Shown piece after piece: positions 3,586 through 31,016 of a stretch of DNA of 64,000 nt. The position numbers and the translations under genes were made by a program. The stretch lies in the NCBI GenBank assembly GCA_963775895.1, contig CAVZKL010000013.1, positions 34,636-98,635 of the forward strand, read 5' to 3'. Within the stretch, counting starts at the first letter, position 1, and each line of letters begins with the position of its first letter. The notes under the pieces are model-generated. The model was not told the DNA's origin and did no database searches. It worked only from the letters and a program-made list of their open reading frames with translations. This stretch comes from Candidatus Bathyarchaeota archaeon. Its GTDB lineage: Archaea; Thermoproteota; Bathyarchaeia; Bathyarchaeales; Bathycorpusculaceae.

Positions 3586-4242
3586 TTATAACCCTTCCTT
3601 AACTTCGTTGCCTAAAGCTTTCATCAGGAACTTGAACACGGCGAAACCAGCTCCACGATCTGCCCTGAAACCCGTCGTGGCTCCCAGCAGACAAACTCCT
3701 TCCAATCCGCGTTCCTTAGCAAGCCCTAATATTAGACCAGTGGCGCCAACGACTCTTCCTTTGCTGTAGATGACAGCGCCCTTTTCCATAAAATCCAAAG
3801 CCAGTCGCGATGAGGTGGCTGCAACGTACACCTGGGCCTTTTCCTCCTTGACAGGTGCTCCCCCGATCGTGACGATAAAATTGCAGCCTCTTTTTTGAAC
3901 AAAATCTAACGTTTCACTACAAAGCGAATAATGAGCTACGACATCGTCAAAAGACGGTTGGGTGTCCCCAGTCATTATTATGAAGTTGTTCTTCTCTGTG
4001 GTTGCGGAATAGAATTCGTACCGTGGCAAGTGGCAAATGCCTTTTCCGTTCACTGACACATAATCTGGAAATGAAGGGGCGTACAACTCTGCAAATAGCT
4101 TAGCCCCACAGAACTTCATCAACAGATAAGCGGCAATCTTGCCCACGTTTCCGAAGCCAGGAAGACCCTGAACAAAGATTGGATTCTTCAGTTCAGGATT
4201 ATAGAGTTCTCGAAGGTAAGGCCCGTTCAAACCCTTCAACAC
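3586..4242 (-). CDS. PAC2-family (proteasome assembly chaperone-like) protein
   Basis: QGLPGFGNVGKIA, FPDYV, GDTQP and TIGG motifs. Confidence 0.85.
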   Translation of the reverse strand: MLKGLNGPYLRELYNPELKNPIFVQGLPGFGNVGKIAAYLLMKFCGAKLFAELYAPSFPDYVSVNGKGICHLPRYEFYSATTEKNNFIIMTGDTQPSFDDVVAHYSLCSETLDFVQKRGCNFIVTIGGAPVKEEKAQVYVAATSSRLALDFMEKGAVIYSKGRVVGATGLILGLAKERGLEGVCLLGATTGFRADRGAGFAVFKFLMKALGNEVKEGL

Positions 4243-4336
4243 CAGACGGAATAGGTAATCATTGCAGGTCTAAAACGTTTCCGTATTCTTCGAAACCGCC
4301 ACCAAAGGCCCTTCCAGGCAGGCTGTTGCATTGACC

Positions 4337-4359
4337 GATACTGTTAAGTTATTTGTGGT
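4337..4359 (+). repeat. Left terminal inverted repeat (23 bp)
   Basis: GATACTGTTAAGTTATTTGTGGT, exact reverse complement of 9558-9580. Confidence 0.92.
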
Positions 4360-4474
4360 GACCGAAATTACTTGGAATAGAACATGCAGCCTCTGCTAGA
4401 GCCAGATTATCGCAAAATAGTTTAACCTGAACGAAGATATGAGTACAAGCAATATTTGTAAGAGATGTGAATAG

Positions 4475-6460
4475 GTGCCAGAAGGCGAAAAGAACCCTGA
4501 ATTAGATAGTTATTTTGGCACTGTCAAACACATACCTTACGGCAAAATACTCTGCTACATCACCTATAAAATCAGAAAAAACACTCCTGAAGAGAACGTT
4601 AGGCAACGTATTGCAAAAAGTTTGGTTCAAGAATATCGTTATGGAAAAGAAGACATTGACGTAGAATTTCCCATCAAGCTTGGCTCGTCAAACCCCAGAA
4701 TTGATCTTCCGATTTTCTTAGAGGGTTCGTCTCACATACAAGAGAATATCTACATTGTCATCGAAACAAAAAAAGAAAGCATTAAACCGACCGACAAAAA
4801 AGAAGGAGTAGATCAACTTAAGAGTTACATGGCAGCGTGCGTAAATTCTCAATTTGGAATGTGGACAAACGGATTGGAAATACAATGTTTACAGAAGCTT
4901 GAAGAAAAAGGCAAGTACATCTTCAATGACATCATAGATATACCTTCAAAAGGAAAAACTATAGACGAATTTGAAAAGCCCACTTTTGCTCGTTTGCGTC
5001 CTGCTGTAGACTTGCGTGCGGTCTTCAAGAGATGCCATAATTACATTTACGGAAATCAGGGATTACCTAAAGACAAGGCGTTCCATGAACTCTTGAAACT
5101 TATCTTCAGCAAAGTGCGAGACGAACGAGAATCAAAGGAAGTTCAATTCTACACCACAAACAAAGAATTGCACTCGACAACTGGTCATCTTAAGGTTCGA
5201 AATAGAATCGGTAACTTGTTTGAAGAAGTTAAGTCCCAATATCCGCATATCTTCAGTGACCAAGATGAAAAAATAGAACTAAACCCGATGGTATTAACCT
5301 ACGTTGTTAACCAAATTCAACCATATTGCTTCCTTGAGACAGATGCGGATGTTAAAGGGGCTGCGTATGAAGAAATAGTCGGAGCTAATCTTAGAGGTGA
5401 TCGAGGAGAGTTCTTTACTCCGAGAAATGTTTGTTCAATGGCTGTGGAGATGCTATTTTCAACTGTTCGTACAGAGTTGTGGAAAGATCTCAAAATAATT
5501 GATCCAGCGTGCGGTACTGGTGGTTTTCTGATAGCAATACTGAACTATGTCAAGGCCAAGTTCTATGAAGAGGAATTTCTGAAATGGAATGGTGATGACC
5601 AGACTGCAACGCAACGAACCATGGACAGAATCAAACTATATTGCGAACACAGCCTCTATGGAATTGACATTAATCCTTTGCTCGTCAGAGCGACCCAAAT
5701 GAACGAGGTAATGCATGGAAACGGTTCTGGAAATCTCTTCTCTGCAAATTCTCTCTTGTCGCCTACAGAATGGCCAACCAACATGAGAGAAAAAATCGAT
5801 CTGGCAAAATTTGATTTTGTGTTCACGAATCCTCCGTTTGGAACCAAGATCCCCATAGATGATCCGAATATCCTTTTGCAGTATGATTTGGGGCATATTT
5901 GGAGAAAGATTGGAGAACACGAATTTGAAATGACGGACAAATTGCGCAATTCAGTTGCTCCTGAGAAACTGTTTATTGAAAGATGCTTCCAGTTTGTTAA
6001 GCCAAAAGGCAGAATAGCTATAGTTTTGCCTGATAGTATTCTCTCTAATCCGAATTGCACATTCATCCGTTATTGGATTTTAAAGCAGATGAAAGTAATA
6101 GCGAGTATAGATTTGCCAACAGAAACTTTCTTGCCCTTTGTTGGAACCCAAGCAAGTCTTCTCATTTTACAGAAGAAAAAGGTTGATGAAATAGGCTTTG
6201 AAGATATAACAAAAGCCGCTCTTCAGTACGAGGTTTTCATGGCGACTCCAACAAAAGTTGGCCATGATAGGAGAGGAAATCCAACTTATGTGCGAAGCCC
6301 AGAAGGCGATGAGTTATTCGTTGATATTGAAAAGCAAATTACACGAATTGATAAAGGACAGAAGATTAAGGAAAACATTGTGCTTTCTGAAAGGGTAAGA
6401 GATGATGACCTTCCTGAAGTCAGTAGACTCTTTACATCTTGGTGGAGTGATAATAAGTGA
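4475..6460 (+). CDS. Fused restriction endonuclease / N6-adenine methyltransferase (type IIB/IIG-like R-M subunit)
   Basis: N-terminal HsdR_N-like PD-(D/E)xK region (PEENVRQ...RIDLPIF...IETKK); GEFFTPR, IIDPACGTGGFL and NPPFG methyltransferase motifs. Confidence 0.88.
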   Translation: MPEGEKNPELDSYFGTVKHIPYGKILCYITYKIRKNTPEENVRQRIAKSLVQEYRYGKEDIDVEFPIKLGSSNPRIDLPIFLEGSSHIQENIYIVIETKKESIKPTDKKEGVDQLKSYMAACVNSQFGMWTNGLEIQCLQKLEEKGKYIFNDIIDIPSKGKTIDEFEKPTFARLRPAVDLRAVFKRCHNYIYGNQGLPKDKAFHELLKLIFSKVRDERESKEVQFYTTNKELHSTTGHLKVRNRIGNLFEEVKSQYPHIFSDQDEKIELNPMVLTYVVNQIQPYCFLETDADVKGAAYEEIVGANLRGDRGEFFTPRNVCSMAVEMLFSTVRTELWKDLKIIDPACGTGGFLIAILNYVKAKFYEEEFLKWNGDDQTATQRTMDRIKLYCEHSLYGIDINPLLVRATQMNEVMHGNGSGNLFSANSLLSPTEWPTNMREKIDLAKFDFVFTNPPFGTKIPIDDPNILLQYDLGHIWRKIGEHEFEMTDKLRNSVAPEKLFIERCFQFVKPKGRIAIVLPDSILSNPNCTFIRYWILKQMKVIASIDLPTETFLPFVGTQASLLILQKKKVDEIGFEDITKAALQYEVFMATPTKVGHDRRGNPTYVRSPEGDELFVDIEKQITRIDKGQKIKENIVLSERVRDDDLPEVSRLFTSWWSDNK

Positions 6461-7179
6461 CTGAACCGCGAGTCAAGTTAAAAGAAATCGCTCCTGCAAA
6501 AATAGGGCACACAATAATCAGCTCAAAGTGGTTGATGGAAGGTGAAGAAAGACTAGATGCAGAACATTACACGCAAGAAGGATTCAGATTTAAAAAAATA
6601 CTCGAAGAAAGTGGTTATCCTCTTTGGCCTCTTGGAAAATGGAAGATTTTTAATCCTCCTCCTCTAAAGCGACATTTCATCGAAAAATCAGCTATGTCTG
6701 TTCCCTATATCATGCCATCAGAGATGTTTGATTTCAAAGTAACGCCAACAAAGTATGTGGCTCCAAAGAAAATCAAGAATGTAGAAGACTGGTATGTGAA
6801 AGAGGGCTGGATTATTCTTTCGCAATCAGGGAATGCAGGTCGCCCACTGTTTGTAACAAAGGAATACGAAAACATTGTTATCTCTCAAAACGCAATAAGA
6901 ATTGTGCCAGATGAAGATTCTAAAGCTGGCTTTGTCTATGCTTACCTATCCACGAAGATGGGGCAATCACTTTTAGGTCAAGAACAATTCGGCGTAACGG
7001 TAAAACACTTACGTCCTCATCATGTGGCTAATATTCCTGTTCCTGAGATTGACTCTGAAGCATCAAAACGAATCCACCGACAGATTGTTGAGGCTGCACG
7101 TTTAAGAAGTGAGGCAAATAGAATCGAGAATGAAGCTATAGCAGAATTGGATAGACTTTTGACCAAGGTGAAGTCCTAA
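6457..7179 (+). CDS. R-M specificity subunit (HsdS-like, apparently a single TRD)
   Basis: RLDAEHY, GWIILSQSGNAG and IPVP followed by a helical tail; 4-bp overlap with the methyltransferase; 240 aa. Confidence 0.75.
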   Translation: MTEPRVKLKEIAPAKIGHTIISSKWLMEGEERLDAEHYTQEGFRFKKILEESGYPLWPLGKWKIFNPPPLKRHFIEKSAMSVPYIMPSEMFDFKVTPTKYVAPKKIKNVEDWYVKEGWIILSQSGNAGRPLFVTKEYENIVISQNAIRIVPDEDSKAGFVYAYLSTKMGQSLLGQEQFGVTVKHLRPHHVANIPVPEIDSEASKRIHRQIVEAARLRSEANRIENEAIAELDRLLTKVKS

Positions 7180-7273
7180 GCCCTTTACATGTTTTCGAAT
7201 CTAGGTGGTATCCTGTGGGCATACCACAAGACATATATACTGTAAGGTATCTTATAGTATACCTGTGAGACGT

Positions 7274-8188
7274 ATGGCATGCAAATATTGTGGCTCTGAA
7301 AAAGTTCGAAAATGGGGCAAAGTCAAAGGCCAACAGGTCTACAAATGCAAGGACTGTGGACACCGATTCTTCGAGAACGGCAACTTCTCAAAAATGAGAG
7401 TTGAAAAGAATCTAGTCGTTGCAGCACTGAACTTCTACTATGACGGTCTGAGCTTACGCAAGGCACAGAGAAACCTAGAACAAATCTTCGGAGAAAGAAT
7501 AAGCCAAGTCACGATTCTGAATTGGATAAAGAAGTATTCAAAGCTAGTCAAAGATTTCGTCACGACCCTAACACCACAACTCTCAGGTTTATGGCATGAA
7601 GACGAAACCATGCTGTCATGCGAAGGGCGAAATGTTTGGTTCTGGGAAATGATAGACGAAGACACAAGATTTCTAGTAACGTCTCACGTCTCAGGAACAA
7701 GAACCCTAGAAGACACAATAGCAGTATTCAAAAGAGGACTTGAACAGAGCAAGGTCAGACCTAGAGCCGTATTCGTGGATGGAAGCTTTGTGTATGAAAC
7801 AGCTTTCAACAAAGTCTTCTACACGATGAGAAAAGACATAAGACCTGAGCTGGTGCAGAGAGTCGGAATACGAGCGAGAGAGACAAACAATATCGTTGAA
7901 AGGATGCATGGGACAGTCAAAGATCGCACAAGATGTATGAGAGGACTCAAAAGCTTCGAGTCTACAAAGTCACTTCTCGAAGGTTTCACAATTCACTATA
8001 ACTATGTTAGACCTCACCAAAGCCTAAACGGAAAGACACCTGCACAAGCAGCTAGAACACAAGCACCTAGCACGTGGAAAGGTTTGATAGATGAAGCAAC
8101 AAAGCACGAAGCACAAGTATTGGCAAAAGCAACAAGTCCTGAGACAAGAATAGAAGAAGGAAAAAAGGTGGAGGCGATTATAAAATGA
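7274..8188 (+). CDS. DDE transposase with N-terminal Zn ribbon and HTH (IS6/rve-like)
   Basis: CKYC...CKDC, GLSLRKA...ISQVTILNW HTH, WHEDET / FVDGS / NNIVERMH catalytic triad and YNYVRPHQSL. Start set at ATG 7274. Confidence 0.88.
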   Translation: MACKYCGSEKVRKWGKVKGQQVYKCKDCGHRFFENGNFSKMRVEKNLVVAALNFYYDGLSLRKAQRNLEQIFGERISQVTILNWIKKYSKLVKDFVTTLTPQLSGLWHEDETMLSCEGRNVWFWEMIDEDTRFLVTSHVSGTRTLEDTIAVFKRGLEQSKVRPRAVFVDGSFVYETAFNKVFYTMRKDIRPELVQRVGIRARETNNIVERMHGTVKDRTRCMRGLKSFESTKSLLEGFTIHYNYVRPHQSLNGKTPAQAARTQAPSTWKGLIDEATKHEAQVLAKATSPETRIEEGKKVEAIIK

Positions 8189-16257: not shown

Positions 16258-17406
16258 TCAGACCCCTCCGCGTTTCGAGATCTCAACGGCGCGACGGGCC
16301 GCTTCTTCCATACTTTCAAGCACCTGAATCCCCGCGTCTGTCAATATCCGTTTTCCTTCCTCTTCATTTGTGCCCACAAGTCTGATCACCATAGGGGTTT
16401 TAACACCGATTCTCTCTTTTGCTTCAAGTATCCCCTTGGCAACTTCATCACAGCGGGTGATACCGCCCATGATGTTTATGAAAAGAGTTTGGACCCGTGG
16501 ATCTGAAAGCACTATCTTTAACGCTAACGCGTTCTTCTCTGAGGTGGCACCGCCCCCTACGTCCAAAAAGTTTGCTGGTCTGCCGCCATAATATTGGATT
16601 GTGTCGAGAGTTGCCATAACGAGTCCTGCACCGTTTCCGATAACCCCTATGTCTCCGTCAAGTCTGACGTAAGCCAAGTCGTTGTTCATTGCTTCGAGTT
16701 CCTGCGGGCTGAGGTCACTTCCACCCTCAAGAAGCCGTTTCTTGTACTCTTGATGTCTGAAAAGTGCATTATCATCAATGATTATTCGGGCGTCAGCCGC
16801 CATGAACTTGCCATCAGAAGTTTCCACAAGAGGGTTCATTTCGATGAGCTCAGCATCGTTTTCCATACCTGCAAGATACAATCTTTCGATTATTTTGGCG
16901 AGATCCAAAATCTGGCTTCCGTTGTAACCCATTCTCCTTGCTATTTCCCGTGTCTCAAAAGTCCTTAGACCAAGTTCAGGTTTTATGGTGGTCTTTATGA
17001 CTTTCTCAGGAGTTTTGGAAGCGACTTCTTCTATGTCAACTCCCCCGACGGGAGAGGCAATCGCCACGTAGCACTGGTTGAACCTGTCAGTGGTTACTCC
17101 GAAATAGAGTTCTTTGCTAACTTGGATCTTTTCTTCGATCCACACGCTTTTGACGGGTATGTCTTTGATTTTCATGTTAAGCAGTTTTTCAGCGACTTTT
17201 TCTGCTTCCTCAGCGGATTGGGCGAATACTATGCCACCTGCCTTCCCTCTTCCTGCGACCAGAACCTGAGCCTTCACGACAACGGGCATTCTAAGCTTAA
17301 GTGCAATTTCATGAGCTTGGCTCGGGCTTGTCGCTAATCCTCCTTGGGGTGTGGCGACGCCATGCTTTGCAAGAATGCTTTTTGCTTCATATTCGTACAG
17401 TTTCAA
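16258..17406 (-). CDS. sucC: Succinyl-CoA synthetase beta subunit (ADP-forming)
   Basis: [37 protein letters not shown] and [10 protein letters not shown]. Confidence 0.95.
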
Positions 17407-18953: not shown

Positions 18954-20292
18954 ATGAAACGAGGAACACCTCTCATGAAGTTGGATCTCATTGGTGATTG
19001 GAACAGAACGCATTATTCTGACGAAGTAAAGCCAGAAGATGACGGCAAAGAAGTAACCCTGTTCGGCTGGGTTCAAGAGATCAGAGACCTAGGTGGCATC
19101 CGCTTCATAATACTGCAAGATCGCGAAGGCACGATTCAAATCACCGTTTTACGAAAAAAAGCAAACAGCGAAGTGCTTTCGAAGTCAGACTCTTTACAAA
19201 AACGGTACAGCATAGGTGTCAGAGGAACAGTAAAGAAGACCAAGATGACGCCGAGAGGAATCGAAGTCATTCCGAACGAAATCAGAATCTTCAACACAGC
19301 CGAACAATTACCAATAGACATCTGCGGGAGGACTCCTGCAAATCTGGAAGTCTGTCTAGACTCACGCGCGCTAGACCTGTCTCTTGAAAAGAACGTAGCG
19401 GTCTTCAAGATTCAACACAACGCCGTCGTGGCAGTCCGAGACTTTCTCTTCGAAAGAGGCTTCTTGGAAGTGCACACTCCACGCATAATCGCCTCGGCAA
19501 CCGAAGGCGGAGCAGCACTTTTTCAACTTGATTACTTCGAAAGAAAAGCGTACCTCGCCCAGAGCCCGCAGCTCTACAAAGAAGAGCTCGTCATGAGCCT
19601 CGAAAAGGTCTTCGAAATAGGACCCTTCTTCAGAGCTGAAGAATCGCATACACGACATCACCTGAGTGAATTCGTATCGATAGACATCGAACAAGCCTTT
19701 GCCACACAAGAGGACGTCATGCAAATTCTTGAACAGCTGATTCAGCATATCTGCAAGAGCCGTGGCGGAAAAGTGCAAGAAGGAACTGATGACGCTTAAG
19801 TACAGTCTGAAAGTGCCTGACGTTCCTTTCAAACGTTTGACTTACGATCAGATACTGGAAGAATTGAAAAAAGAAGGAATCGATGTTTCATGGGGCGAAG
19901 ACATTCCGACCCCGGCGTTCAGAACGATAGGCAAACTTCACCCATACTTCTATTTCATAGTCGACTGGCCCACTGAATCAAAAGCATTCTACATAAAACC
20001 ACGCGATGACAACCCAGAGATTTCCGAAGGATTTGACTTGATGTGGCGATGGATGGAGCTCGTTTCAGGCGGAACAAGAATCGCATCCAAAGAACTGCTG
20101 ATAAAACGACTGAAAGAAAAGGGCCTCAACCCGGAATCCTTCAAACATCATCTGCAAGCTTTCGACTACGGCATGCCACCACACGCAGGCTGGGCAATAG
20201 GGTTAGAAAGATTGACGATGATGCTGACCGGAAAGAAAAACATACGAGAAGTCATGCTGTACCCACGCGACAAGTTCAGACTCACCCCATAG
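18954..20292 (+). CDS. aspS: Aspartyl-tRNA synthetase (one frameshift near 19770)
   Basis: OB fold GWV..IRDLG, YLAQSPQLYK, FRAEES and GMPPHAGWAIGLERL. Confidence 0.93.
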
Positions 20293-20385
20293 CTTTGTTT
20301 AGCACTGTTCTTGTAAAAATCATCATCCTTTTTAGCTGAAAATGTGCTAAAAACTGATAAATACCACTTGCGTTATTCCCAAGCC

Positions 20386-21903
20386 ATGGGAGACGAACCA
20401 GGGATCGAATGCGGCGTATTCGGTGCGATAAGCCGCAATAGCCAACACGTGTTTCCATACATATACTGGGGCATGAGAGCTCAAAACCACAGAGGACACC
20501 AATCACACGGTTTTCTCACTTATCTTGACGGAAAATTCTACGCAAACAGAAGCCTCGACCTCGTGCCGAAAATCAAGACAAACGCGATCCAAGAATGGTT
20601 TGGACGATTGCCAGGAAACATCGGCATCGGAAACGTCAGGTACACCACCTCAGGAAAATGCGACGAAAAATCGCTTGTGAAGGGAACACAACCCGTAACG
20701 GCCTCCAAGAAACGGTTCAAACTGGCTGTATCATTCAACGGTAACATCGTGAACACTTTTCAGCTCAAGAGAGACATTCTCAAACAGTTTCCACACTTCT
20801 CTTATGAGTGCGACGCAAACCTGGTCTGCTACAAACTGTTGATAGAATACTTGAAAAGTCAAGACATTACCTCGGCCGCGGAAGCTTGTATGAAAGAGAT
20901 TGATGGAGCGTTCTCAGTGGCCGCCGTAACGCAGGACGGTGATTTCTTCGCATTCAAAGACCCACATGGAATAAGACCACTCTGCGCAGGACACAGCGAA
21001 GACAATTCAATCTACGCCTTCTCCTCAGAAACTGCGAGCCTCGACATAAACGGCTTTCAAAGAGACTTTGAGCTGGAACCCGGAGAACTTGTCAAAGTCA
21101 CAGAAAACGGTTTTGAAAGAAAAAGACTGGTCAGAGAGCAGAGAAAAGCGTTCTGCTCCTTTGAATTCGCGTACTTCGCCAGACCAGATTCACGGTTCGA
21201 CGACAAATATGTTTACGAAGTTCGAGAGGAATTTGGAAGGAACCTTGTCAGGGAAAACCCAGACGTCGTGAAGGATGCAGACATAGTCATTTCTGTACCT
21301 GAGACTGCAGACGACGCAGCTATGGGAGTTCATGAGGCTTCCGGATTAAGATGGGAAAGAGCCTCGCGAAGACATCGCTACGTAACCGAAAGGGCTTTCA
21401 TCCTCCTAAGCAGAGATCGAAACCAAACGATTGACAGAAAAATAAACATCCTAGAGCCCAAGATTGAGGGCAAACGCATAGTCGTGACAGACGATAGCAT
21501 CGTCAGAGGAGACACAACAAAGATTATCGTTGCGAAACTCCGCAAGATGAGGGCCAAGAAGGTGTACTTGTTCGTCACCTTTCCACGCATAATCGGACCA
21601 TGCTTCTACGGAGTGGACATGGCCACGTACGGCCAACTCTTGGGTGCAAAACACAATCCCGAAGAAATAAGCGAGATAATAGGCGCAGACAAGGTTTGCT
21701 ACCAGTCTATCGAAGGCCTTGTCAAGGCAACAGGATTCAAAAAAGAAGAATTGTGCACGGGTTGCATAACAGGCGAGTATCCAACACCCTTAGCCCAGAG
21801 AATAGCGGATGACGTGAAGAAACGGCTCCTTCAAGGTTACGAAGAGAAAGAAAGATTGTACGAGATAGAAGAGCCAATTGAAGCTACCTGTGGGACTGAT
21901 TAG
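20386..21903 (+). CDS. purF: Amidophosphoribosyltransferase
   Basis: Propeptide then CGVFG, QNHRG, RYTT, CSFEFAYFARPDS, DDSIVRG and PCFYGVD. Confidence 0.93.
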   Translation: MGDEPGIECGVFGAISRNSQHVFPYIYWGMRAQNHRGHQSHGFLTYLDGKFYANRSLDLVPKIKTNAIQEWFGRLPGNIGIGNVRYTTSGKCDEKSLVKGTQPVTASKKRFKLAVSFNGNIVNTFQLKRDILKQFPHFSYECDANLVCYKLLIEYLKSQDITSAAEACMKEIDGAFSVAAVTQDGDFFAFKDPHGIRPLCAGHSEDNSIYAFSSETASLDINGFQRDFELEPGELVKVTENGFERKRLVREQRKAFCSFEFAYFARPDSRFDDKYVYEVREEFGRNLVRENPDVVKDADIVISVPETADDAAMGVHEASGLRWERASRRHRYVTERAFILLSRDRNQTIDRKINILEPKIEGKRIVVTDDSIVRGDTTKIIVAKLRKMRAKKVYLFVTFPRIIGPCFYGVDMATYGQLLGAKHNPEEISEIIGADKVCYQSIEGLVKATGFKKEELCTGCITGEYPTPLAQRIADDVKKRLLQGYEEKERLYEIEEPIEATCGTD

Positions 21904-21941
21904 GTCTTTCACGATCATTTCAACAGTATGAGGGGGCTCCG

Positions 21942-23351
21942 ATGGAAAAAGTAGGCATACTCGTGGTTTCATACGGTTCAAGAGAAGCAGCGATGATTGA
22001 TGCCTTCACGCGCAGTACGAAGTACAATGCAGAAATTTATGTGGTGGACAAACAGCACAACCCGTTCAACGTGGAAAAGGCGGCCAAACACGTTGTCATA
22101 CCCGATTTGAACATTGAAAAGATCTGCAAATTCGCAGATGCAAACAAGAACCGCGTTGATTTCGGCATTGTAGGTCCAGAGAAGCCGATAGTTGAAGGAA
22201 TACGCGACCTTGTAGAGAAACGTACGAAAATACCGATGATTTGCCCCACAAAAAAGTATGCTATTGAGGAGAGCAAAGTAGAGCAACGACTGTTGTTTGA
22301 CAGAATCGTGCCCGAAGCAAATCCTCGCTTCAAAATCTTCAACCCAGAGGATTACGAGGACGTTTCAGAAGTCAAGAGAGATGTTTACAGTTGGCTTGAC
22401 GTATTGGAAAACCAAGCCGTCGTCAAACCTGACAAGCCCGCAGCTGGAAAAGGAGTAGGCGTTTGGGGAGACCACTTCAACACGCGAGAACAGCTTTTCG
22501 AGCACTTTCTATCGAATTATCGTCACGGTCCTGTGATTATCGAAGAGAGAATTGAAGGGGAAGAATCAAGCTTTCAAGCGTTCTGCGACGGAAAACACCT
22601 GGTCCCCTTACCTGACACGAGAGACTACAAGCGAGCGTTCGACCAAGATAAAGGACCAAATACTGGAGGAATGGGTTCTTACAAAGACACAGGTGACATA
22701 CTACCATTCCTGACAAAGACAGACCGAGCCAAAGAACTGGAAGTTGCCGACAGAATCTTTCAGAAATGGAAAGGAAAAGACAATTCTTCTTTGAGAGGTG
22801 TACCCTTATACCTTGCCTTTATGCACTCAAACAAAGGATTGAAAATCCTTGAAAACAACAGCCGCCCAGGAGACCCCGAGATAATCAACATCTTACCCGT
22901 GCTAGAGGACGATTTTGTCGATGTCTGCTTCAGAATGCTTGAAGGAAGCCTCACTCAGATTGAGCTTCGGAAAGCAGCCACGGTAGTAACCTATAAGGCT
23001 CCACCTTCCTATGCAGGATTCTGTGAAAACTTCCCCAAGCGCGTAGACAAAGCTCACGTTGACAAACCGGTTGATCTCACGGGAGCCTATGAACTCAGCA
23101 GAAGACACCCTGACCAAGTGCGAGTTTATCCCGGCTCAATGGAAAAACGCGACGGCAAGAACTTCACCTTGAGGTCCAGAACAGTCTGCACGGTGGGAAT
23201 CGCGGACAACATTGAGGATGCCCGATCAATATCGCTCGATGCCTTAAAAGCAATCAAAGGCGGAGCTCTTTGGTACAGGACCGACATAGCGTCAACGGCT
23301 CACATAAAGAAAAGCGTTAGTCATTTGGAGAGCTTGAGGCGCAACCCGTGA
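21942..23351 (+). CDS. purD: Phosphoribosylamine-glycine ligase
   Basis: GSRE, VGPE, AAGKGV, DYKRAFDQDKGPNTGGMGSY and RPGDPE. Confidence 0.92.
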   Translation: MEKVGILVVSYGSREAAMIDAFTRSTKYNAEIYVVDKQHNPFNVEKAAKHVVIPDLNIEKICKFADANKNRVDFGIVGPEKPIVEGIRDLVEKRTKIPMICPTKKYAIEESKVEQRLLFDRIVPEANPRFKIFNPEDYEDVSEVKRDVYSWLDVLENQAVVKPDKPAAGKGVGVWGDHFNTREQLFEHFLSNYRHGPVIIEERIEGEESSFQAFCDGKHLVPLPDTRDYKRAFDQDKGPNTGGMGSYKDTGDILPFLTKTDRAKELEVADRIFQKWKGKDNSSLRGVPLYLAFMHSNKGLKILENNSRPGDPEIINILPVLEDDFVDVCFRMLEGSLTQIELRKAATVVTYKAPPSYAGFCENFPKRVDKAHVDKPVDLTGAYELSRRHPDQVRVYPGSMEKRDGKNFTLRSRTVCTVGIADNIEDARSISLDALKAIKGGALWYRTDIASTAHIKKSVSHLESLRRNP

Positions 23352-24431
23352 AAGGGGTCTTCGTATCAGACTGTGAAGGACCGATCTCAAAAAACGACAA
23401 CGCCTTTGAAATAACTGCACAATTTGTTCCCTCTGGAGACAAGATTTTCACGTTGATAAGCAGGTATGACGATGTGCTTGCAGAATTGGTCAAGAAACCT
23501 GGCTACAAGGCAGGCGACACGCTGAAGCTAATCCTACCCTTTCTGAAAGCCTATGGAGTAACAGATCTATTGATCAGGGAATTGTCGGCAAGAAAGTTGG
23601 CCTTGATGCCTCTCGTGAAAATCACTCTGGATTATATCACGAAGATTGCGCCAGCCTATGTTATCAGCACAAGCTACGAACACTATATTGAAGCTCTATG
23701 CAAAGCAATCGGTTTTCCTTTCGAAAACACGTACTGCACCAAACTGCGTTTAGACAGATACGAGTTGGGATGGCAGGAAAGGGATCAGCTTAGGCGAATC
23801 GCTTCGGAGATAACGGTGATGCCGACCTTCGAAATTCCACTGCGGAGCTACCAGTCTGAAAGACCTTCCTGTGAAGGCACAAGCAACGGTTCGAAAGTTA
23901 GACGAGATTTTCTGGGACACAATAGAGAAAATGCAAATTGGAAGAATCTATTCAGAAGTGAATCCGATCGGCGGAATTGAAAAAGCTCAAGCCATCGAGG
24001 AGATCGTCAACAGACTATCCACAAGGCTTGCAGACGTCATGTATGTTGGCGATAGCATCACCGATGAGGAAGCGTTGAAACTAGTGAAAGAAAACGATGG
24101 CCTCGCAGTTTCCTTCAACGGAAACCAGCACGCAGTTGAAAATGCAGACATCGCATTAATGTCTCCAGATTGTACAGTCACCGCCATAATCGCTGAAACT
24201 TTTCTCCGATTTGGAAAGAAAGAGACACTAGCCCTAGTGGCGAATTGGAATAGACAAACGCTAGAAAAGAGTCCATTGAACAATGATTTGATCAAGCTGT
24301 TTCTCAGATTACATCCGCGCAATTTGCCTAAAGCTAAAATAATAAAGAAAGAAGATAGGGCAAAGCTGTCGAAAGAAAGCAGCGAATTCAGAAAAAAGGT
24401 TAGAGGAGAACGAGTTGGCAGGTTAGGATGA
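23348..24431 (+). CDS. HAD-superfamily hydrolase (EhaR-like; one frameshift near 23850)
   Basis: Motif [23 protein letters not shown] and AVSFNGN; 4-bp overlaps with purD and the next gene. Confidence 0.8.
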
Positions 24432-25345
24432 ACTTGGTTAACAAAAACTTGATTCAAGATACTTTCGCTGAGGCTTTTGATGGATTCTACACCCGATTGA
24501 TCGTAACTGCAGACGACTCGGAAACGCTGAGACGTGCAGTGGAAGACGCAACAGCTACGCCTTCCACCGTGATCGACAGGATCGAAGGCGGAACAGAGAA
24601 GTGGCTTACGGAGAAAGAGACTCCGGACAAACGGAAAGGCGCAATTCTGCAGTTTTGGGGAGCACATCATAAGAAGAAACCGTTCTCGGACAGTTTGAAG
24701 AAGTTTGAGACTGAACTCTCTTACAGAATACGGCAAGACATATTGGTCAAGCCGTTTACAGCCGTTTTTGACGCTTTGCCAAATGCTGAAGGAAAGATTG
24801 ACATGATGGAACGGGTTGGCCATTGCGGCGATGGATATGAATGGATGGAAAAAAGACACGAAAGAGAAGTAATAGTTGTGCCAATAATGGTTCCTGACTT
24901 CGTGATCGAACGTTACTTGGGTTATGCCCGCGGCGTCATGGGGGCCAACTTTTGGATAATGTGCAAAACCAAAGAGGCATTGAGGGAAGCTGGGAAAAAA
25001 GCGCTGGCAGCTATACACGGAGTGGAAGGTGTAATAACACCGTTTGACGTCTGCTCTGCAGGTTCGAAGCCGGAAACGAACTTTCCATGGATTGGACCGA
25101 CAACGAACCAACTTTACTGTCCATCTCTAAAAGGGAAGCTCGACGGGGATTCAAGGGTGCCCGAAGGCGTCAACTACATACCTGAAATTGTCATCGATGG
25201 AATTTCAATGAACGCAGTGAAGGAAGCAATGAAGAAGGGAATATCGGCCGCATCGAAAATCAAAGGTGTCGTCGGAATATCCGCTGGCAACTACGACGGC
25301 AAACTGGGCGAGTACAAGATCTACTTGAGAGAGCTGTTCAGATGA
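24428..25345 (+). CDS. Formylmethanofuran:H4MPT formyltransferase-family paralog (EhaS-like)
   Basis: [19 protein letters not shown]...AGSK, PTTN..YCP, PEIVIDG and [11 protein letters not shown]. It diverges from canonical Ftr at TATPSTV and [12 protein letters not shown]. Confidence 0.85.
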
Positions 25346-26262
25346 GCCAGTTCGACGCAGTTGGGTTCGGAGCTCTTAACGTCGACAAGCTTTTCAAAGT
25401 TGAAAAAATAGCTGCGGCAGAAGAGGAAACTTCAGTAATCGACTACTCGGAGACGTGTGGCGGTTCAGCCGCAAACACAATGGTTGGCTTGGCAAGACTC
25501 GGCTGCAAAGTGGGTTTCATCGGAAAAATCGCCTGGGATCCTGAAGGAAAAATGCTCTTGCAAGATTTCAGACGAGAAAGAGTCGACACTAAAGGAATGG
25601 TCATCACCAAAGATGGCAGAAGTGGCAAAGTCATGGGTTTCGTGGATAAAAATGGTCAGCGAGCCCTGTACGTTGATGCAGGCGTGAACGATGCGATGAG
25701 ACCAGAAGACGTGAACTTGACCTACGCTTCGAACGCAAAGCTAGTGCACCTAACGTCCTTCGTCGGACAACAGTCATTTCAAACTCAGAAATGGCTTCTC
25801 AATAAGCTGCCCTTGAGGGTTAAGGTGAGCTTTGACCCAGGAGCTCTCTATGCAAGAACTGGAATGGCGAAACTCCAACCGATAATAGAGAGAACTTCTA
25901 TAATGCTGCCGAACGCAGATGAACTTGCACTAATAACGGGTAAAAATGATTACAGAGAAGGAGCGAAACTGCTACTTGACAACGGCGTAAAGATAATAGC
26001 CGTCAAGCTTGGAAACCATGGATGTTATGTGACGGATGGAAGGGAAAGCCATATTGTAGCTCCGTTCAAGGTCAAAGTAATCGACACGACAGGGGCCGGA
26101 GACGCGTTTGACGCTGGTTTTCTCTACGGTTTGCTAAGAGACAGGAGTCTCGAAGAAGCTTCTAGAATTGGCAACTTCGTTGCTTCAAAGTGCATAATGG
26201 CAATGGGCGCGAGACTTGGGTTGCCAACGCTCAAAACCCTAACAACCGAGATGCAGATGTGA
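25342..26262 (+). CDS. PfkB/ribokinase-family carbohydrate or nucleoside kinase (EhaT-like)
   Basis: GALNVD, GGSAANT..GLARLG, SFDPG and DTTGAGDAF. Confidence 0.9.
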
Positions 26263-26320
26263 CCAGAGACAACGCATCCAGCCGCAGGATTCTAAGCCTA
26301 TGAAAAGATCATAAAGTTCC

Positions 26321-27141
26321 TTAACGTTCTCTCTCCAAATAGTTAATCAGGCTTTCAAAAATGAGACTTCCATCTGAGAATTCTGGCATTTTCAGTTGCC
26401 GTGTCCAATCCGGTCGCTGCCACCAGTAGAAGGCTCTTTCAGGATGCGGCATCAGACCGAAAATGGTGCCCTCTGGGTTGCATATACCTGCTATGTCGTG
26501 AAATGCACCGTTCGGGTTGGCCGGATAAGAACCTTTGGCGTATTCGCCATCTTTCTTGCAGTAGCGGAATACCAGCTGATCGTTTTCAACAAGTTTTTCC
26601 AAATAGCGCTTCTCTCTCTCTTTTGCGAAGATAAATCTTCCTTCAGCGTGCGCAACAGGTACGTGGATTGTTTTCCCCTTTCTGCATCTTCGAAGTGAAC
26701 ACGCATTTTCCACTGTTCTCGTGTTTGAGGCTGATCCATCTGCAATTGTAACCCGGCGGAACATTCGTTGCTAATGCAGCCTCAGGCACTTGGCTGGTAC
26801 CCTCAAACCCTGGAAGCAGACCGGCCTCAACAAGCACTTGGAAACCGTTGCAGATCCCGAGGATCGGACGATTCTCATCCACGAAAGCCTTGAGCTCTTT
26901 GCCCAACTTCGCAAGTACCCATTTCGCCCATATGGCCCCAGCCCGAACGTAGTCTCCGTAAGAGAAACCGCCGGGGAAAACGAGTGCATCATAATCCAGC
27001 ATGTTCTTTCGCTTGATCATTTCGTTGACGTGAACAATTTCGGCCTTGACCCCAAGTTCTCTTGAATGAACGCCCCGTTTCGGCGTCACAGTTGGTTCCA
27101 CCGACGCGCAAAACGCAGATCCTGATCTCTTCCCTTTTCAT
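26321..27141 (-). CDS. purQ: FGAM synthase glutaminase subunit (several frameshifts)
   Basis: [30 protein letters not shown] and GLMPHPER spread over three ORFs. Confidence 0.9.
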
Positions 27142-27143
27142 AT

Positions 27144-29525
27144 TCAAACCCCCGCGCTGAGCGACCCCTTCCAAGCTGCCAGAAGGTCGTTAATTGAAGC
27201 GTCAATCACAATTTCACGCGTCAACCCCCGGATGCGCAGGCTTGTCGTTTTTGTAACCCTTCCTATTTCGGATAAGACTTGCCCCTTCATCAGAGTTTCA
27301 AAGTGATCTTTTGCTTTCTGTGAAACTTCAACTAAGAAGCGGCTGTTCGACTCTGAGAACAGAACCAAATCATTGCGGCTCAAATTACGCCTCGGAACGT
27401 CTAACAAGTTCATTTCGATGCCGTACCCACCTGCAAATGCCATCTCAGCTGCTGCAACCGCCAGACCTCCTTCTGACAGGTCGTGACAAGCCTTGACTAG
27501 GCCCAAATCGATGGCCTTTGTCAACGCGCGGTAAGTCTTCTTTGCCTGTTTCCCGCGCACTTTGGGCACGGTTTTACCGATAAAGCCGTTCAGTCTATAG
27601 TACTCCGAGCCACCAAGTTCGAAGAAAGTCTCCCCAACAATATACATTGAGTCGCCGTTTGACTTCACGTCCATTGAAACCGCGGAACGCACGTCTGGAA
27701 TGATGCCTAATGCGGTTATAAGAAGTGTCGGAGTCACTGGCCCCAAGGGCGATTCGTTGTAAAGGCTGTCTTTGCCCGAAATGAAGGGTGTTTCATAAGC
27801 AACTGCAAAATCATAACAGGCTTCACATGCTCTTACAAGGCTACCCAGTCGTTCTGGTCGTTCAGGGTTCCCCCACGTGAAGTTGTCCAGCAATGCGATA
27901 CGTCGGCCACCCACGGCCACGTTGTTTCTTATCGCCTCATCAATCACGGAGGCTGCCATCCAATAAGTGTCGATCTTACCATAGTTCGGGTTCATCCCGC
28001 ATGAGATCACGATACCTTTCCAAGAATCGTTCAGTGGTTTCAGTACCGCAGCGTCATTTGGTCCCGCGTTTTCTCCCTGGAATGGTTTCAGCACAGTGTT
28101 TCCTTTCACTTCGTGGTCGTACGTTCGAACAACGCTCTCTTTGCTGGCGATGTTGGGTGACGCAAGAAGTTTCAACAACGTTTCCGTAAGTCGTTTTGAA
28201 TCTGGCAAATTTGGCTCCTCAAACTGCGTATGCTCAAGTACCGCAGTTTTCGTCGTCTTTGGCGGCCCAAACAGAAAGGCGAGATCCATCCTTGCGACTT
28301 TCTGACCTTGATAGCTGAGTTCCAGAGTTCTCTCAGAAACGAGTGTTCCGATTGCGGTAGCCTGAACGTCTTCCTCTTTGAAAACGTTCAATGCTCTTTC
28401 AAGGTTTTCAGGTGGCACGGTCAGGAGCATTCTCTCTTGGGATTCAGAAATGTAGATCTCCCATGGAGCTAATCCAGCGTATTTCAGGGGGACTTTCTCG
28501 AGGTTCACCTTAGCACCGACTGCAAACCTGTTTGCGGTTTCGCCCACTGCAGAGGATAAACCGCCTCCGCCCAGATCAGTGATCGAGGATGCAAGCTCCA
28601 AGTCTCGGATCGCGATTATCGCTCTTTTCAGTTTCTCTTCTTCTATGGGGTTTGCAATTTGCACGGATGGACGTGACACTTCTTCAGATTTCTCCGTCAG
28701 TTCTGCTGATGCAAAGGTCACGCCGTGAATGCCGTCTCGGCCGGTCTTGCCGCCTGCGATTACGATTATGTCGTTTGGTTTGGCGGCTTTCTTGAACTTC
28801 CTAAGAGGAAGTAATCCGACGCATCCGCAGTAGACAACGACGTTTCCGACATAGGTTTCGTCGAAGTATATGGCGCCGTTCACCGTCGGAATTCCCATGT
28901 TGTTTCCGTAGCTTCCTATGCCCGCCACTACGCCCATGTACACGTATTTGGGATGCTTGACACCGGCTGGAAGCTTTGTGTAGTCGAAGTCCAAAGGGCC
29001 GAAGCCCAGTACGTCAGTGCAAGCGATTGGGTCAGCCCAGACGCCCAATATGTCGCGGATGACTCCGCCTGTTCCTGTGGCTGCCCCTCCGAAGGGTTCC
29101 ACTGCGCTTGGATGGTTGTGTGTTTCCACTTTCATCGCTATTCCGTGATTTTTGTCAAAATCCACGATTCCAGCGTTGTCTTCGAAAACAGAGAAACACC
29201 ATTTTGGTTTGATCTTCTTGACAGTTTCAGAGATGTATGTCTTGAATAGACTGTTGATTTCTTTTCCTTTGAATTTTATCTTGCCCTTGAAGGTTTTATG
29301 GTAGCAGTGTTCAGACCATGTTTGGCCTAGGGTTTGGAGTTCCACGTCGGTTGGATTTCGACGTTGTTTTGCGAAATATTTTTGGACGCACCTCATTTCG
29401 TCGAGGCTTAAACCGATTCCGAGTTCATTGCTCACATCTGCGAGTTCTCCGTCTGAGGCGTTGCGAAGGTTGATTTCAAAAAGTGGAAAAGGCATTTTCT
29501 TGTTAACATACAGCGTACTGGTCAT
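27144..29525 (-). CDS. purL: FGAM synthase large subunit
   Basis: WSEHCYHK, KVETHNHPSAVEPFGGAATG, DLGGGG and SESQERM. Confidence 0.95.
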   Translation of the reverse strand: MTSTLYVNKKMPFPLFEINLRNASDGELADVSNELGIGLSLDEMRCVQKYFAKQRRNPTDVELQTLGQTWSEHCYHKTFKGKIKFKGKEINSLFKTYISETVKKIKPKWCFSVFEDNAGIVDFDKNHGIAMKVETHNHPSAVEPFGGAATGTGGVIRDILGVWADPIACTDVLGFGPLDFDYTKLPAGVKHPKYVYMGVVAGIGSYGNNMGIPTVNGAIYFDETYVGNVVVYCGCVGLLPLRKFKKAAKPNDIIVIAGGKTGRDGIHGVTFASAELTEKSEEVSRPSVQIANPIEEEKLKRAIIAIRDLELASSITDLGGGGLSSAVGETANRFAVGAKVNLEKVPLKYAGLAPWEIYISESQERMLLTVPPENLERALNVFKEEDVQATAIGTLVSERTLELSYQGQKVARMDLAFLFGPPKTTKTAVLEHTQFEEPNLPDSKRLTETLLKLLASPNIASKESVVRTYDHEVKGNTVLKPFQGENAGPNDAAVLKPLNDSWKGIVISCGMNPNYGKIDTYWMAASVIDEAIRNNVAVGGRRIALLDNFTWGNPERPERLGSLVRACEACYDFAVAYETPFISGKDSLYNESPLGPVTPTLLITALGIIPDVRSAVSMDVKSNGDSMYIVGETFFELGGSEYYRLNGFIGKTVPKVRGKQAKKTYRALTKAIDLGLVKACHDLSEGGLAVAAAEMAFAGGYGIEMNLLDVPRRNLSRNDLVLFSESNSRFLVEVSQKAKDHFETLMKGQVLSEIGRVTKTTSLRIRGLTREIVIDASINDLLAAWKGSLSAGV

Positions 29526-29773
29526 CGGGTTTCCTCGATGACGATTGAGTAGTTGTCTTTTGTTGGGTTTGCCAAGAGCCTCTTGCACATTTCTTCTGCT
29601 TTTGCTTCTGCTTTTTTCTTCGTTGCCGCTTCATGCATAATCGTGTAGACTTTGCTCACGTTGACAGAATCAATCTCATAGCCAAGTTCTTTCAGCAACT
29701 GCGCGGTGGTTTCACCCTCAGGGTCGCTGTGCCCTGGTTTCAGACTGACTTCAATTCTGAGACGCCATTTCAT
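29522..29773 (-). CDS. purS: FGAM synthase small subunit
   Basis: LKPGHSDPEGE...MCKRLLANP. Confidence 0.92.
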   Translation of the reverse strand: MKWRLRIEVSLKPGHSDPEGETTAQLLKELGYEIDSVNVSKVYTIMHEAATKKKAEAKAEEMCKRLLANPTKDNYSIVIEETR

Positions 29774-29830
29774 GTCTAGATGTTGAGTTGAACGGAATTT
29801 AAACGCTTTCGCCACAATAAATGCAAAGCT

Positions 29831-30911
29831 CTAATTTAGGATGATTCTCTTGTTCTTGTACAGAATTCTGATTCCTTCTCGATTCGACACGTGTCCTATC
29901 TGTTCAGATCCTTGTTCCGTCTTCTCGAGGATGTCAACCGCCTTGTCTGCGTCAGTCTTGTTTACGATTACGGCAAAGCCCCAGCCCATGTTAAACGTTT
30001 TGAACATCTCCTCGTCCGTTATAGGAGTCTTGAGTTTGCTTGCAGTCTCTCGGATTACGTTGAACACGGGTTGCGGTTTGAAGTTGTCGAAATCGAAGCC
30101 TATGCCTTTTGAGAATTTGGTAAACCGGCCAAATTTCAGGTATGCGTCGCCAGTGATGTGCACCGCTCCTTTCAATTCGAGCTCAGCTGCGAGTCTGAGG
30201 AATGGTTTCACGTAAATTCTGGTCGGTTCTAAAACTTCATGGACTATTTCCTTTGTTAGCCCATCTGGGACGTCGTCTGGTTCGTATCTTCCGCCCCATT
30301 GTTTGAACAGTACCCTTCTGAGCGAGTGAAATGCCGTTGCTGTGAACGCCAGAGCTTCTCAGCCCGATTATTGAATCCCCTGGTCTTATGCCTTTGCCGG
30401 TTATCACTTTGTCCTTGAACACTTCACCTATGGAAGCGAAGACCATGTCGAACCCTTTGCCTTCGCGAAGCCCCTTTATCAAATCAGCTACGTCACCGAT
30501 CTCGCCGCTGGGCACTACGCATTCAGATTCTTCCGCGCCTTTCACGATTCCCTTCATCCATTCTTGCACAAGAAAAGGGTCAGAGACTTGCGCATGGATG
30601 TTGTCCGCCACTGCCAACGGTTTAGCCCCTGATCTTATGACGTCGTTGACAGCCATTGCGACGCCGTCAATTCCGATAGTACTGTATTTTCCTGCAAGCT
30701 GTGCAAGCAGAACCTTGGTGCCTACTCCTTCAATGACCAAGTCGAGATAATGGTCGTCAAATGGGAATACTCTTCCAAATGGAAGCTCAACAACTTTTCC
30801 ATAGCGACTGTTACTATAAGTCCGTGTTAGAGTTTGAAGTGCTTTCTTGGATTCAGCTCTTCGGTCTCTGTCCACACCAGTATCGGAATAAGTGAGTTTC
30901 CGAGTCATCAT
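29831..30911 (-). CDS. purM: AIR synthetase (frameshifted)
   Basis: TYSDTGVD, EGVGTK, AMAVND, SSGVHSNG, HITG and TFNMGWG. Confidence 0.9.
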
Positions 30912-31016
30912 GGAACCTTCTGGCCCGAATTCTAGTTGTCTTGGACTTATAAAAAAGCACCCTCGAAATGCGGACAAGAACTGCCATATTCAAAGTTTGG
31001 ACTGCGCGGACGACGT

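Follow-up and report, generated by a model that had tools for sequence, protein, structure and literature searches.

Comparative genomic analysis of a 64,000-nucleotide stretch from a Candidatus Bathyarchaeota archaeon (hereafter the window; assembly GCA_963775895.1, contig CAVZKL010000013.1, positions 34,636 to 98,635) pointed to a candidate for the missing third enzyme of archaeal purine biosynthesis, the formyltransferase converting glycinamide ribonucleotide (GAR) to formylglycinamide ribonucleotide (FGAR). The candidate, Ftr2, is a paralog of formylmethanofuran:tetrahydromethanopterin (H4MPT) formyltransferase (Ftr) of the EhaS type and is probably the GAR formyltransferase of archaea that carry one-carbon (C1) units on H4MPT and methanofuran and have neither the folate-dependent PurN nor the formate- and ATP-dependent PurT, a core interpretation that is well supported by comparative genomics. 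Ftr2 would thus be a third, non-homologous kind of GAR formyltransferase. The gap itself, stated in an earlier note made from the window sequence alone, is in print; a GAR formyltransferase is reported as unidentified in the Archaeoglobi, Methanobacteriales, and Methanopyrus kandleri (Brown, 2011; PMC3261824), and the same gap is given for the anaerobic methanotrophic archaea (ANME) of group ANME-1, with Ftr2 listed in just these groups and no link drawn between the two (Chadwick et al., 2022; PMC9012536). No paper joining Ftr2 or EhaS to GAR formylation was found in the full-text literature, subscription journals and supplements being outside its reach, and the distribution claims made here stand apart from the supplementary trees and gene tables of Brown (2011) and Chadwick et al. 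(2022), which may bear on them.

Ftr2 and the two established GAR formyltransferases were close to mutually exclusive across a sample of 403 genomes, the co-occurrence pattern that the earlier note had proposed to examine. The sample comprised 131 genomes of the class Bathyarchaeia, 171 of a second phylum (around locus L068), and 101 Methanobacteria; Ftr2 was recognized by a profile built from 29 Ftr2 sequences that separates it (at least 366 bits) from the canonical type, Ftr1 (at most 281 bits), PurN by Pfam family PF00551 (Formyl_trans_N), and PurT-like genes by a score of at least 200 bits. Not one of the 48 Bathyarchaeia with Ftr2 had a PF00551 match or a PurT-like gene (neither in 48), compared to 55 with either among the 83 lacking Ftr2 (PF00551 in 43, PurT-like in 12, neither in 28). 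The second phylum gave a similar picture, with neither gene in 66 of 73 Ftr2 carriers (PF00551 and hence either in seven, PurT-like in none) and in 11 of the 98 genomes lacking Ftr2 (PF00551 in 74, PurT-like in 17, either in 87). The 60 Bathyarchaeia that carry Ftr1 only mostly have PurN or PurT-like genes (PF00551 in 30, PurT-like in nine, either in 39, neither in 21), and Ftr2 is therefore not simply a marker of H4MPT use. Switches were also identified within families f16 and f26, the former having a PurT-like gene in eight genomes, Ftr2 in two, and PurN in one. Ftr2 was present in all 101 genomes of the phylum of Methanobrevibacter (Methanobacteria), and both PF00551 and PurT were absent from five of five Methanobacteria chosen from these for a single-contig Ftr2 match; neither PurN nor PurT was found in Alkanophaga, a Halobacteriota metagenome-assembled genome (MAG), Methanobrevibacter, or Borrarchaeum.

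The genome that holds the window (G000) is a MAG of 1.77 Mb in 28 contigs, 88.8% complete, and close homologues of its window Ftr protein bear Bathyarchaeia names. The genome-wide search called for in the earlier note recovered a separate canonical Ftr1 on another contig (C12), 38% identical to Ftr2, and neither purN nor purT; PF00551 was matched in no part of the genome (88.8% complete), and the best match to the PurT model TIGR01142 was 38.9 bits (a 1007-aa open reading frame, ORF) against a cut-off of 502. Among G000 and 20 relatives, PF00551 was matched in 0 of 21 and PurT over its cut-off in 0 of 21 (best 48.7 bits), and a full-length Ftr2 was encoded in 19 of the 21. As to the 28 Bathyarchaeia without Ftr2, PurN, or PurT, 18 also have no PurL, among them every sampled genome from three families, and these 18 probably make no purines and have no pathway to complete. 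Among the ten with PurL, G017 carries a partial Ftr2 at a contig end, and most of the others are incomplete genomes from families in which one of the three genes is otherwise present.

Ftr2 belongs to the Ftr family, as both Pfam lobes (FTR and FTR_C) scored above their gathering thresholds and NF002554 was matched above its cut-off at 345 bits, and it falls outside the canonical Ftr/FhcD equivalog TIGR03119 (229.6 bits against a cut-off of 292.6). Identity to the window protein was bimodal in 21 genomes of the same order, at either 63-100% or 36-43%. In a tree whose 103 rows were 50%-cluster representatives, named loci, the Ftr protein of the window, and the other Ftr of G000, two clades separated, each with 100% support in the Shimodaira-Hasegawa-like approximate likelihood ratio test (SH-aLRT). 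The canonical clade held the Methanococci, Archaeoglobaceae, the Planctomycetota FhcD type, and Ftr1 (C12) of G000; the Ftr2 clade held the window protein, other Bathyarchaeia, Methanobrevibacter, Methanophagales/Alkanophaga, Archaeoglobaceae, Hydrothermarchaeota, Promethearchaeota, and Borrarchaeum. The sequence from Methanobrevibacter nests among those of the Bathyarchaeia, and the grouping of the window protein with the EhaS-type paralogs of Methanobacteria, which the earlier note had put forward for an Ftr tree, was thereby recovered with 100% support. The clade matches one named “Ftr2” that had been noted without a function (Chadwick et al., 2022; PMC9012536). In phmmer searches Ftr2 scored 187 bits to 1M5H, 172 bits to 1FTR, and 100 bits to FhcD (6S6Y).

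At the level of residues, E253 is conserved in 46 of 46 Ftr2 sequences, with the corresponding glutamate in 44 of 52 Ftr1 rows, and in the alignment falls on position 245 of the M. kandleri enzyme (1FTR), which we take to be its active-site Glu245. The equivalent glutamate of FhcD (Glu252) stabilizes the oxyanion (Hemmann et al., 2019; PMC6926001). Residues R102, C133, W176, and G223-P224 are invariant in Ftr2 only, together with an insertion after W77; R102 is replaced by glycine in most Ftr1 and C133 by phenylalanine in 43 of 52. The Ftr2-specific conserved residues P45, V48, G50, and R102 lie in the two segments that the earlier note had flagged as divergent from canonical Ftr. A long-branch subgroup inside the Ftr2 clade (P0201, P0204, P0205, P0270, and P0140), with 23-37% identity to the window protein, retains the glutamate and has Phe or Tyr in place of C133.

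The genomic context of Ftr2 in the window is a purine operon. In the chain of genes for purD, a haloacid dehalogenase (HAD)-superfamily hydrolase, Ftr2, and a PfkB-family kinase, each start overlaps the preceding stop by 4 bp (at 23348, 24428, and 25342), and the plus-strand run from purF to the PfkB gene converges on the minus-strand purQ-purL-purS-purM genes; the ORF coordinates (Table 1) agree with the arrangement first read from the sequence. Pfam and NCBIfam scans, the basis of all family assignments in the window, likewise bore out that purine steps 1, 2, 4, and 5 are encoded there and that step 3 is missing, with no PurN or PurT in the window. The order purF-purD-HAD-Ftr2-PfkB, including purF upstream of purD, was retained in ten of ten fetched relatives. 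Among 42 Bathyarchaeia-labeled Ftr2 loci, both HAD and PfkB lay within 1.5 kb of Ftr2 in 40, purD accompanied the trio in 36, and any pur gene was present in 40; PfkB adjoins Ftr2 in all 42, and contig ends truncate three of the six loci that have no purD. The 12 Ftr1-type loci had no HAD-PfkB pair within 1.5 kb, no purD, and no other pur gene. In the Asgard archaeon Borrarchaeum (L092), the genes purF-purD-HAD-Ftr2-PfkB-purL-purQ-purM occupy a single strand.

Further arrangements were identified in other lineages. The order HAD-PfkB-Ftr2 occurs in three genomes of the second phylum. In a closed genome of that phylum (L117, G217:C1:1724000-1738000), Ftr2 is 73% identical to the window protein and is followed by a GMP-synthase subunit gene, and the HAD protein is only 33% identical and encoded 0.86 Mb away, a pattern that suggests lateral transfer of Ftr2 between phyla. 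A contig labeled Bacteroidaceae (L075, CAVDAS010000017.1) carries archaeal HAD-Ftr2-PfkB genes beside ORFs in an eha-like layout, and a 2.2-kb contig labeled Nitrosotalea (L069, DYFG01000198.1) an ANME-1-like Ftr2; both contigs are probably mis-binned. A phosphoserine phosphatase (PSP)-like HAD of another subfamily lies directly upstream of Ftr2 at a Promethearchaeota locus, and a divergent PfkB gene stands head-to-head with Ftr2 at a Hydrothermarchaeota locus (L076:7250-7981 and L083:6971-7894, given jointly for the two). Three Promethearchaeota loci (L087-L089, about 6261-7877) have a 307-aa ORF head-to-head with Ftr2, that of L088 having no Pfam or NCBIfam match.

The HAD protein represents a distinct, well-conserved subfamily of about 360 aa with a C-terminal tail that is also conserved and the motifs DxEGP, STSY, GG..K, and GDSITD; across 22 sequences, little or no variation was seen at D8-x-E10-G-P (with Glu for the second Asp), S107-T-S-Y, K212, and G234-D-S-I-T-D239. 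It has motifs I-IV, the Asp nucleophile, and the Rossmann-like core of the superfamily, and no NCBIfam model was matched over its cut-off. The structural model of the protein (predicted local distance difference test score 94) matched 1Y8A best (AF1437; template modeling scores 0.78/0.89, 26% identity, E 5.6e-21), followed by the phosphoserine phosphatases (SerB) and ThrH. The PfkB protein was nearest to the models for ribokinase (TIGR02152, 161 bits against a cut-off of 299.65, the best NCBIfam match) and ribose-1-phosphate kinase (138.8 bits), under all their cut-offs.

HAD and Ftr2 are linked at the genome level, with a HAD ortholog in 68 of 73 second-phylum genomes with Ftr2 and 15 of 98 without, often far from Ftr2 on the chromosome. 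The 15 HAD carriers without Ftr2 have PurN in seven cases and PurT in one. An overlapping HAD-PfkB pair without Ftr2 was present in four of four loci fetched from those seven PurN genomes (L123 of G168, L124 of G200, L125 of G234, and L126 of G190), and in G205, which has no Ftr2, a PurT-like gene (ATP-grasp and PurT_C, 344 bits to TIGR01142) is convergent to and beside an overlapping PfkB-HAD pair (L112, G205:C7:1-14000, about 3675-6887). It follows that the pair functions independently of Ftr2. This bears on the proposal of the earlier note that the trio is a purine module in which the Ftr paralog acts as GAR transformylase, possibly on the nucleoside. The Ftr2 distribution and the Bathyarchaeia operon favor the module; the riboside route, in which HAD would dephosphorylate GAR, Ftr2 formylate it, and the kinase rephosphorylate it, is not supported and has a low probability, as it would be senseless beside PurN or PurT. 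As a tight pair that usually accompanies Ftr2 and also exists without it, HAD and PfkB probably serve the same supply line by acting on a pentose or ribosyl phosphate and take no part in the formyl transfer itself. In three of the four PurN-genome loci, a 370-aa ORF near the pair has the size of the fructose 1,6-bisphosphate (FBP) aldolase/phosphatase in L072 and L077.

For the reaction itself, we infer that GAR is the acceptor and that the formyl group would pass from N5-formyl-H4MPT (or formyl-methanofuran) to its glycinamide amine, giving FGAR for PurLQS. As in Ftr, the active site would lie at the dimer interface with the conserved, protonated glutamate stabilizing the oxyanion, and PurL would pull FGAR forward. 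Transfer from formyl-H4MPT to furfurylamine is uphill by only +4.4 kJ/mol (PMC6926001), and by analogy the chemistry of formyl transfer from formyl-H4MPT to a primary amine appears permissive. FwdA is encoded in G000, so that formyl-methanofuran should be made. The later formylation, that of 5-aminoimidazole-4-carboxamide ribonucleotide (AICAR), is covered by PurP, which was present in five of five relatives tested, as tandem pairs in three (L121, G013:C53; L122, G108:C1; and G099:C1:1429199-1430925), and is a single PurP of a characterized cluster in the Methanobacteriales (PMC3261824). G000 gave no match to PurP (PF06973) or PurH (PF01808); since all five relatives have PurP, its absence is taken as incompleteness or divergence, and the window's own family (G001 and G028) has one divergent, longer PurP-like gene (488-489 aa) with an insertion. 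A role for Ftr2 as a substitute AICAR formyltransferase was considered and rejected on the presence of PurP in the five relatives. Nor would Ftr2 be a formate source in the Methanobacteriales, since formate dehydrogenase (Fdh)-negative Methanothermobacter marburgensis requires formate (PMC3087415).

A wider reading, to which we give an even chance, is that purine C8 is drawn directly from CO2 reduction by Ftr2 as a third class of GAR formyltransferase using no folate, free formate, or ATP, with a mobile HAD-Ftr2-PfkB cassette repeatedly displacing PurN and PurT. The displacement would have taken place in the Bathyarchaeia, Methanobacteria, Archaeoglobi/ANME-1-like archaea, and some Asgard archaea. 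The hydrogenase Eha would make good the loss of formyl groups from the methanogenic cycle to purine synthesis, hence the trio at the end of the Eha operon. In a bolder version, the HAD-PfkB riboside shunt would spend one ATP to render the transfer irreversible.

Several observations weigh against Ftr2 as the GAR formyltransferase. The 200-bit line for PurT-like genes was set after the data had been seen, and at E<=1e-40 one of the 48 Ftr2-bearing Bathyarchaeia (G021, 175 bits) has a PurT-like match; PF00551 also picks up formyltransferases other than PurN. The association tests (Fisher p of about 5e-16 in the Bathyarchaeia and 2e-27 in the second phylum) are uncorrected for shared ancestry. 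G034 is a real exception, being 98% complete and encoding PurL without Ftr2, PurN, or PurT; the 20 kb fetched around its purL hold purQ-purL-purS and not the trio. The same kind of gap exists in the second phylum, where nine of the 11 genomes with none of the three genes have PurL, one of the nine (G225) having an Ftr2 split over two contig ends. A PurN-family gene accompanies Ftr2 in seven of the 73 carriers of that phylum, of which four have a lower-scoring 329-aa Ftr2, and one Promethearchaeia genome has both; ANME-2a/2b, lineages with PurN, are listed with Ftr2 (Chadwick et al., 2022; PMC9012536), in agreement with such double carriers. Linkage to pur genes, whose conservation the earlier note had set as a criterion, is strong but lineage-limited. 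Outside the Bathyarchaeia, only three of 26 loci of the Ftr2 clade, many on short contigs, have both HAD and PfkB within 1.5 kb, one has purD, and two have any pur gene. In a closed Methanobacteria genome the trio is embedded among a [NiFe]-hydrogenase large subunit gene and two polyferredoxin genes on one side and a further polyferredoxin gene on the other, and at ANME-1-like loci HAD lies 2-5 kb upstream of Ftr2 with genes for FBP aldolase/phosphatase, phosphofructokinase (PFK), or tetratricopeptide repeat (TPR) proteins between. An opinion cited by Brown (2011; PMC3261824) also holds that formyl-H4MPT does not function as the formyl donor here.

Other explanations share parts of this evidence. 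The trio might be a module for sugar or ribosyl phosphates in which C1 chemistry is a side reaction, serving pentose or phosphoribosyl pyrophosphate (PRPP) supply, salvage of intermediates, or the synthesis of H4MPT or methanofuran, with another gene as the real GAR formyltransferase and the exclusion arising from lineage or cofactor habits. The HAD-PfkB pairs found without Ftr2 in PurN genomes and beside PurT in G205 are in keeping with this, as are the neighbors at ANME-1-like loci (FBP aldolase/phosphatase, PFK, and an aldolase-like gene), the proximity of PfkB to ribokinase and ribose-1-phosphate kinase, and that of the HAD fold to the small-substrate phosphatases SerB and ThrH. We consider it unlikely, because it leaves unexplained why 39 of 60 Ftr1-only Bathyarchaeia have PurN or PurT-like genes and none of the 48 Ftr2 carriers do, does not account for the switches within f16 and f26, and offers no other candidate for the formyl transfer, for which Ftr2 retains its glutamate in all 46 sequences. 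Ftr2 might instead be an isoenzyme of canonical Ftr that moves formyl groups between methanofuran and H4MPT for anabolic C1 flow under other conditions or with a variant cofactor. The match of both Pfam lobes, the NF002554 score, the conserved glutamate, and the formyl-methanofuran expected from FwdA would all suit such an enzyme, as would the co-location with Eha in Methanobacteria; Eha feeds the first step of the methanogenic pathway as an anaplerotic enzyme. An isoenzyme would not be expected to form a separate ancient clade with its own invariants (R102, C133, and the W77-region insertion), to be embedded in a Bathyarchaeia pur operon, or to vanish whenever PurT or PurN is present, and this explanation appears improbable.

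A more indirect role for Ftr2 would be the PurU-like release or relay of formate or an activated formyl group, taken from formyl-H4MPT or formyl-methanofuran, to a formate-dependent ligase such as a PurP paralog acting on GAR. PurP was indeed found in all five relatives with tandem pairs in three, and PurP-like paralogs of unknown function were noted by Brown (2011; PMC3261824). A formate supplier should accompany PurT, yet PurT occurs in 0 of 73 and 0 of 48 genomes with Ftr2; the Methanobacteriales have a single PurP (PMC3261824), G001 and G028 have only one divergent PurP-like gene, and Fdh-negative M. marburgensis needs added formate, with no other route to formate according to Kaster (2011; PMC3087415), all of which make a relay very unlikely. 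The reading suggested by the annotation in Methanothermobacter, that the trio encodes subunits of the energy-converting hydrogenase Eha with a structural or regulatory part, draws on its position as the last genes of the hydrogenase/polyferredoxin cluster of Methanobacteria, its reported co-transcription with ehaA-R (Kaster, 2011; PMC3087415), and an Atlas cluster that bears the name EhaR. It is hardly credible given that the trio stands among pur genes in the window and at 40 of 42 Bathyarchaeia-labeled loci, where the stretch from purF to purM showed no hydrogenase gene, that the trio or pair occurs in many lineages in varied gene orders, and that all three proteins retain the catalytic motifs of soluble enzymes. 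Scans of the ORFs between 16258 and 33774 with Pfam and NCBIfam gave no hydrogenase family.

If Ftr2 does formylate GAR, a formyl-H4MPT- or formyl-methanofuran-dependent enzyme would close a gap acknowledged since at least 2011 in the Methanobacteriales, Archaeoglobales, Methanopyrus, and ANME-1 (PMC3261824; PMC9012536), groups to which model methanogens and organisms of major weight in methane cycling belong. EhaS/Ftr2 would gain a function and its place in the eha operon a rationale, the automatic annotation of thousands of “Ftr” genes would be corrected, as would pathway reconstructions for MAGs of Bathyarchaeia, ANME, and Asgard archaea in which both Ftr copies are assigned to the Wood-Ljungdahl pathway, and one reaction would be seen to have been invented independently a third time. 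The open question is in any case reduced to an experimentally testable candidate.

Table 1. Genes of the purine cluster in the window, with the domain or model matches that support each assignment.
Gene and product	Coordinates	Strand	Matches and remarks
purF, amidophosphoribosyltransferase (step 1)	20344-21903	+	TIGR01134 318.9 bits, below curated cut-off 350; GATase_7/6 domains
purD, GAR synthetase (step 2)	21942-23351	+	GARS_N/A/C domains; TIGR00877 245.6 bits, below cut-off 288
HAD-superfamily hydrolase, EhaR/AF1437 type (DxEGP)	23348-24431	+	two ORFs in different frames
Ftr2, Ftr paralog (formylmethanofuran:H4MPT formyltransferase family)	24428-25345	+	PF01913 148.1 bits and PF02741 189.4 bits
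PfkB-family ribokinase-like kinase, EhaT type	25342-26262	+	PF00294 185.4 bits
purQ, glutaminase subunit (step 4)	26321-27101	-	two GATase_5 halves
purL (step 4)	27144-29588	-	TIGR01736 672.5 bits, above cut-off
purS (step 4)	29522-29815	-	TIGR00302 70.8 bits, above cut-off
purM (step 5)	29831-30977	-	AIRS and AIRS_C halves in two ORFs

The HAD, purQ, and purM genes are each broken into two frames in the window and are single ORFs in ten of ten relatives, the HAD gene as one ORF of 360 aa. Logan contigs of close strains from four of four public runs lack one base relative to the window at 23840/23842 in HAD, 26670/26675 in purQ, and 30320/30321 in purM, with another base missing near 27043-27062 in purQ. 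Because the extra bases are absent from all four runs and the relatives have intact ORFs, the one-base insertions are most likely consensus errors of this assembly, and true pseudogenization of the three genes was rejected. A class II aminoacyl-tRNA synthetase gene (tRNA-synt_2 and OB fold) at 18954-20292 is likewise split into two overlapping ORFs in different frames, which points to frequent one-base consensus errors in the assembly. Elsewhere in G000, a second FwdA-like gene is split (C11:64739-66356, 337 and 243 bits) with a TGA within its first piece and may be a further assembly frameshift or a broken paralog. The window also carries, unrelated to the finding, a succinyl-CoA-synthetase-beta-like gene (ATP-grasp_2 and Ligase_CoA, 16258-17406, minus strand) followed by genes for an Lrp/AsnC-type regulator and Alba.

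Among known systems, the EhaR, EhaS, and EhaT proteins of Methanothermobacter are of the same three families, encoded in the same HAD-Ftr-PfkB order and in one cluster. The resemblance, pointed out in the earlier note, proved to be homology, with HAD-Ftr2-PfkB at Methanobacteria loci L073, L075, and L119 (the proteins of L119 being 46-62% identical to those of the window) and the trio closing the hydrogenase cluster in Methanobacteria; the Methanothermobacter trio lies in the eha hydrogenase operon, in contrast to the pur genes that flank the window trio, and a role in methanogenesis or sugar activation was held unlikely (Kaster, 2011; PMC3087415). The HAD partner has its best structural match in AF1437 of Archaeoglobus fulgidus (1Y8A), for which a literature search found no function. 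Canonical Ftr (1FTR/2FHJ of M. kandleri and 1M5H of A. fulgidus) shares with Ftr2 both Pfam lobes and the oxyanion glutamate, and the acceptor of its reverse reaction is a primary R-CH2-NH2 amine, as in GAR. It differs in being only 36-41% identical, in falling into a separate clade, in its gene context, and in lacking the Ftr2-specific invariants and insertion, and the two coexist in the same genomes. The bacterial formyltransferase/hydrolase complex subunit FhcD (6S6Y) is also of the Ftr family and works in the direction from formyl-H4MPT to an amine (PMC6926001), differing from Ftr2 in its position on the Ftr1 side of the tree (Planctomycetota row), its four-subunit complex, and its bound methylofuran acceptor. 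PurN and PurT catalyze the reaction proposed here for Ftr2 and have no sequence or fold relation to it; the window candidate has the Ftr fold and not the Formyl_trans_N fold of PurN or the ATP-grasp of PurT (TIGR01142), and the donor would be formyl-H4MPT or formyl-methanofuran in place of formyl-tetrahydrofolate or formyl phosphate. Their distribution is complementary to that of Ftr2, as expected for non-orthologous displacement.

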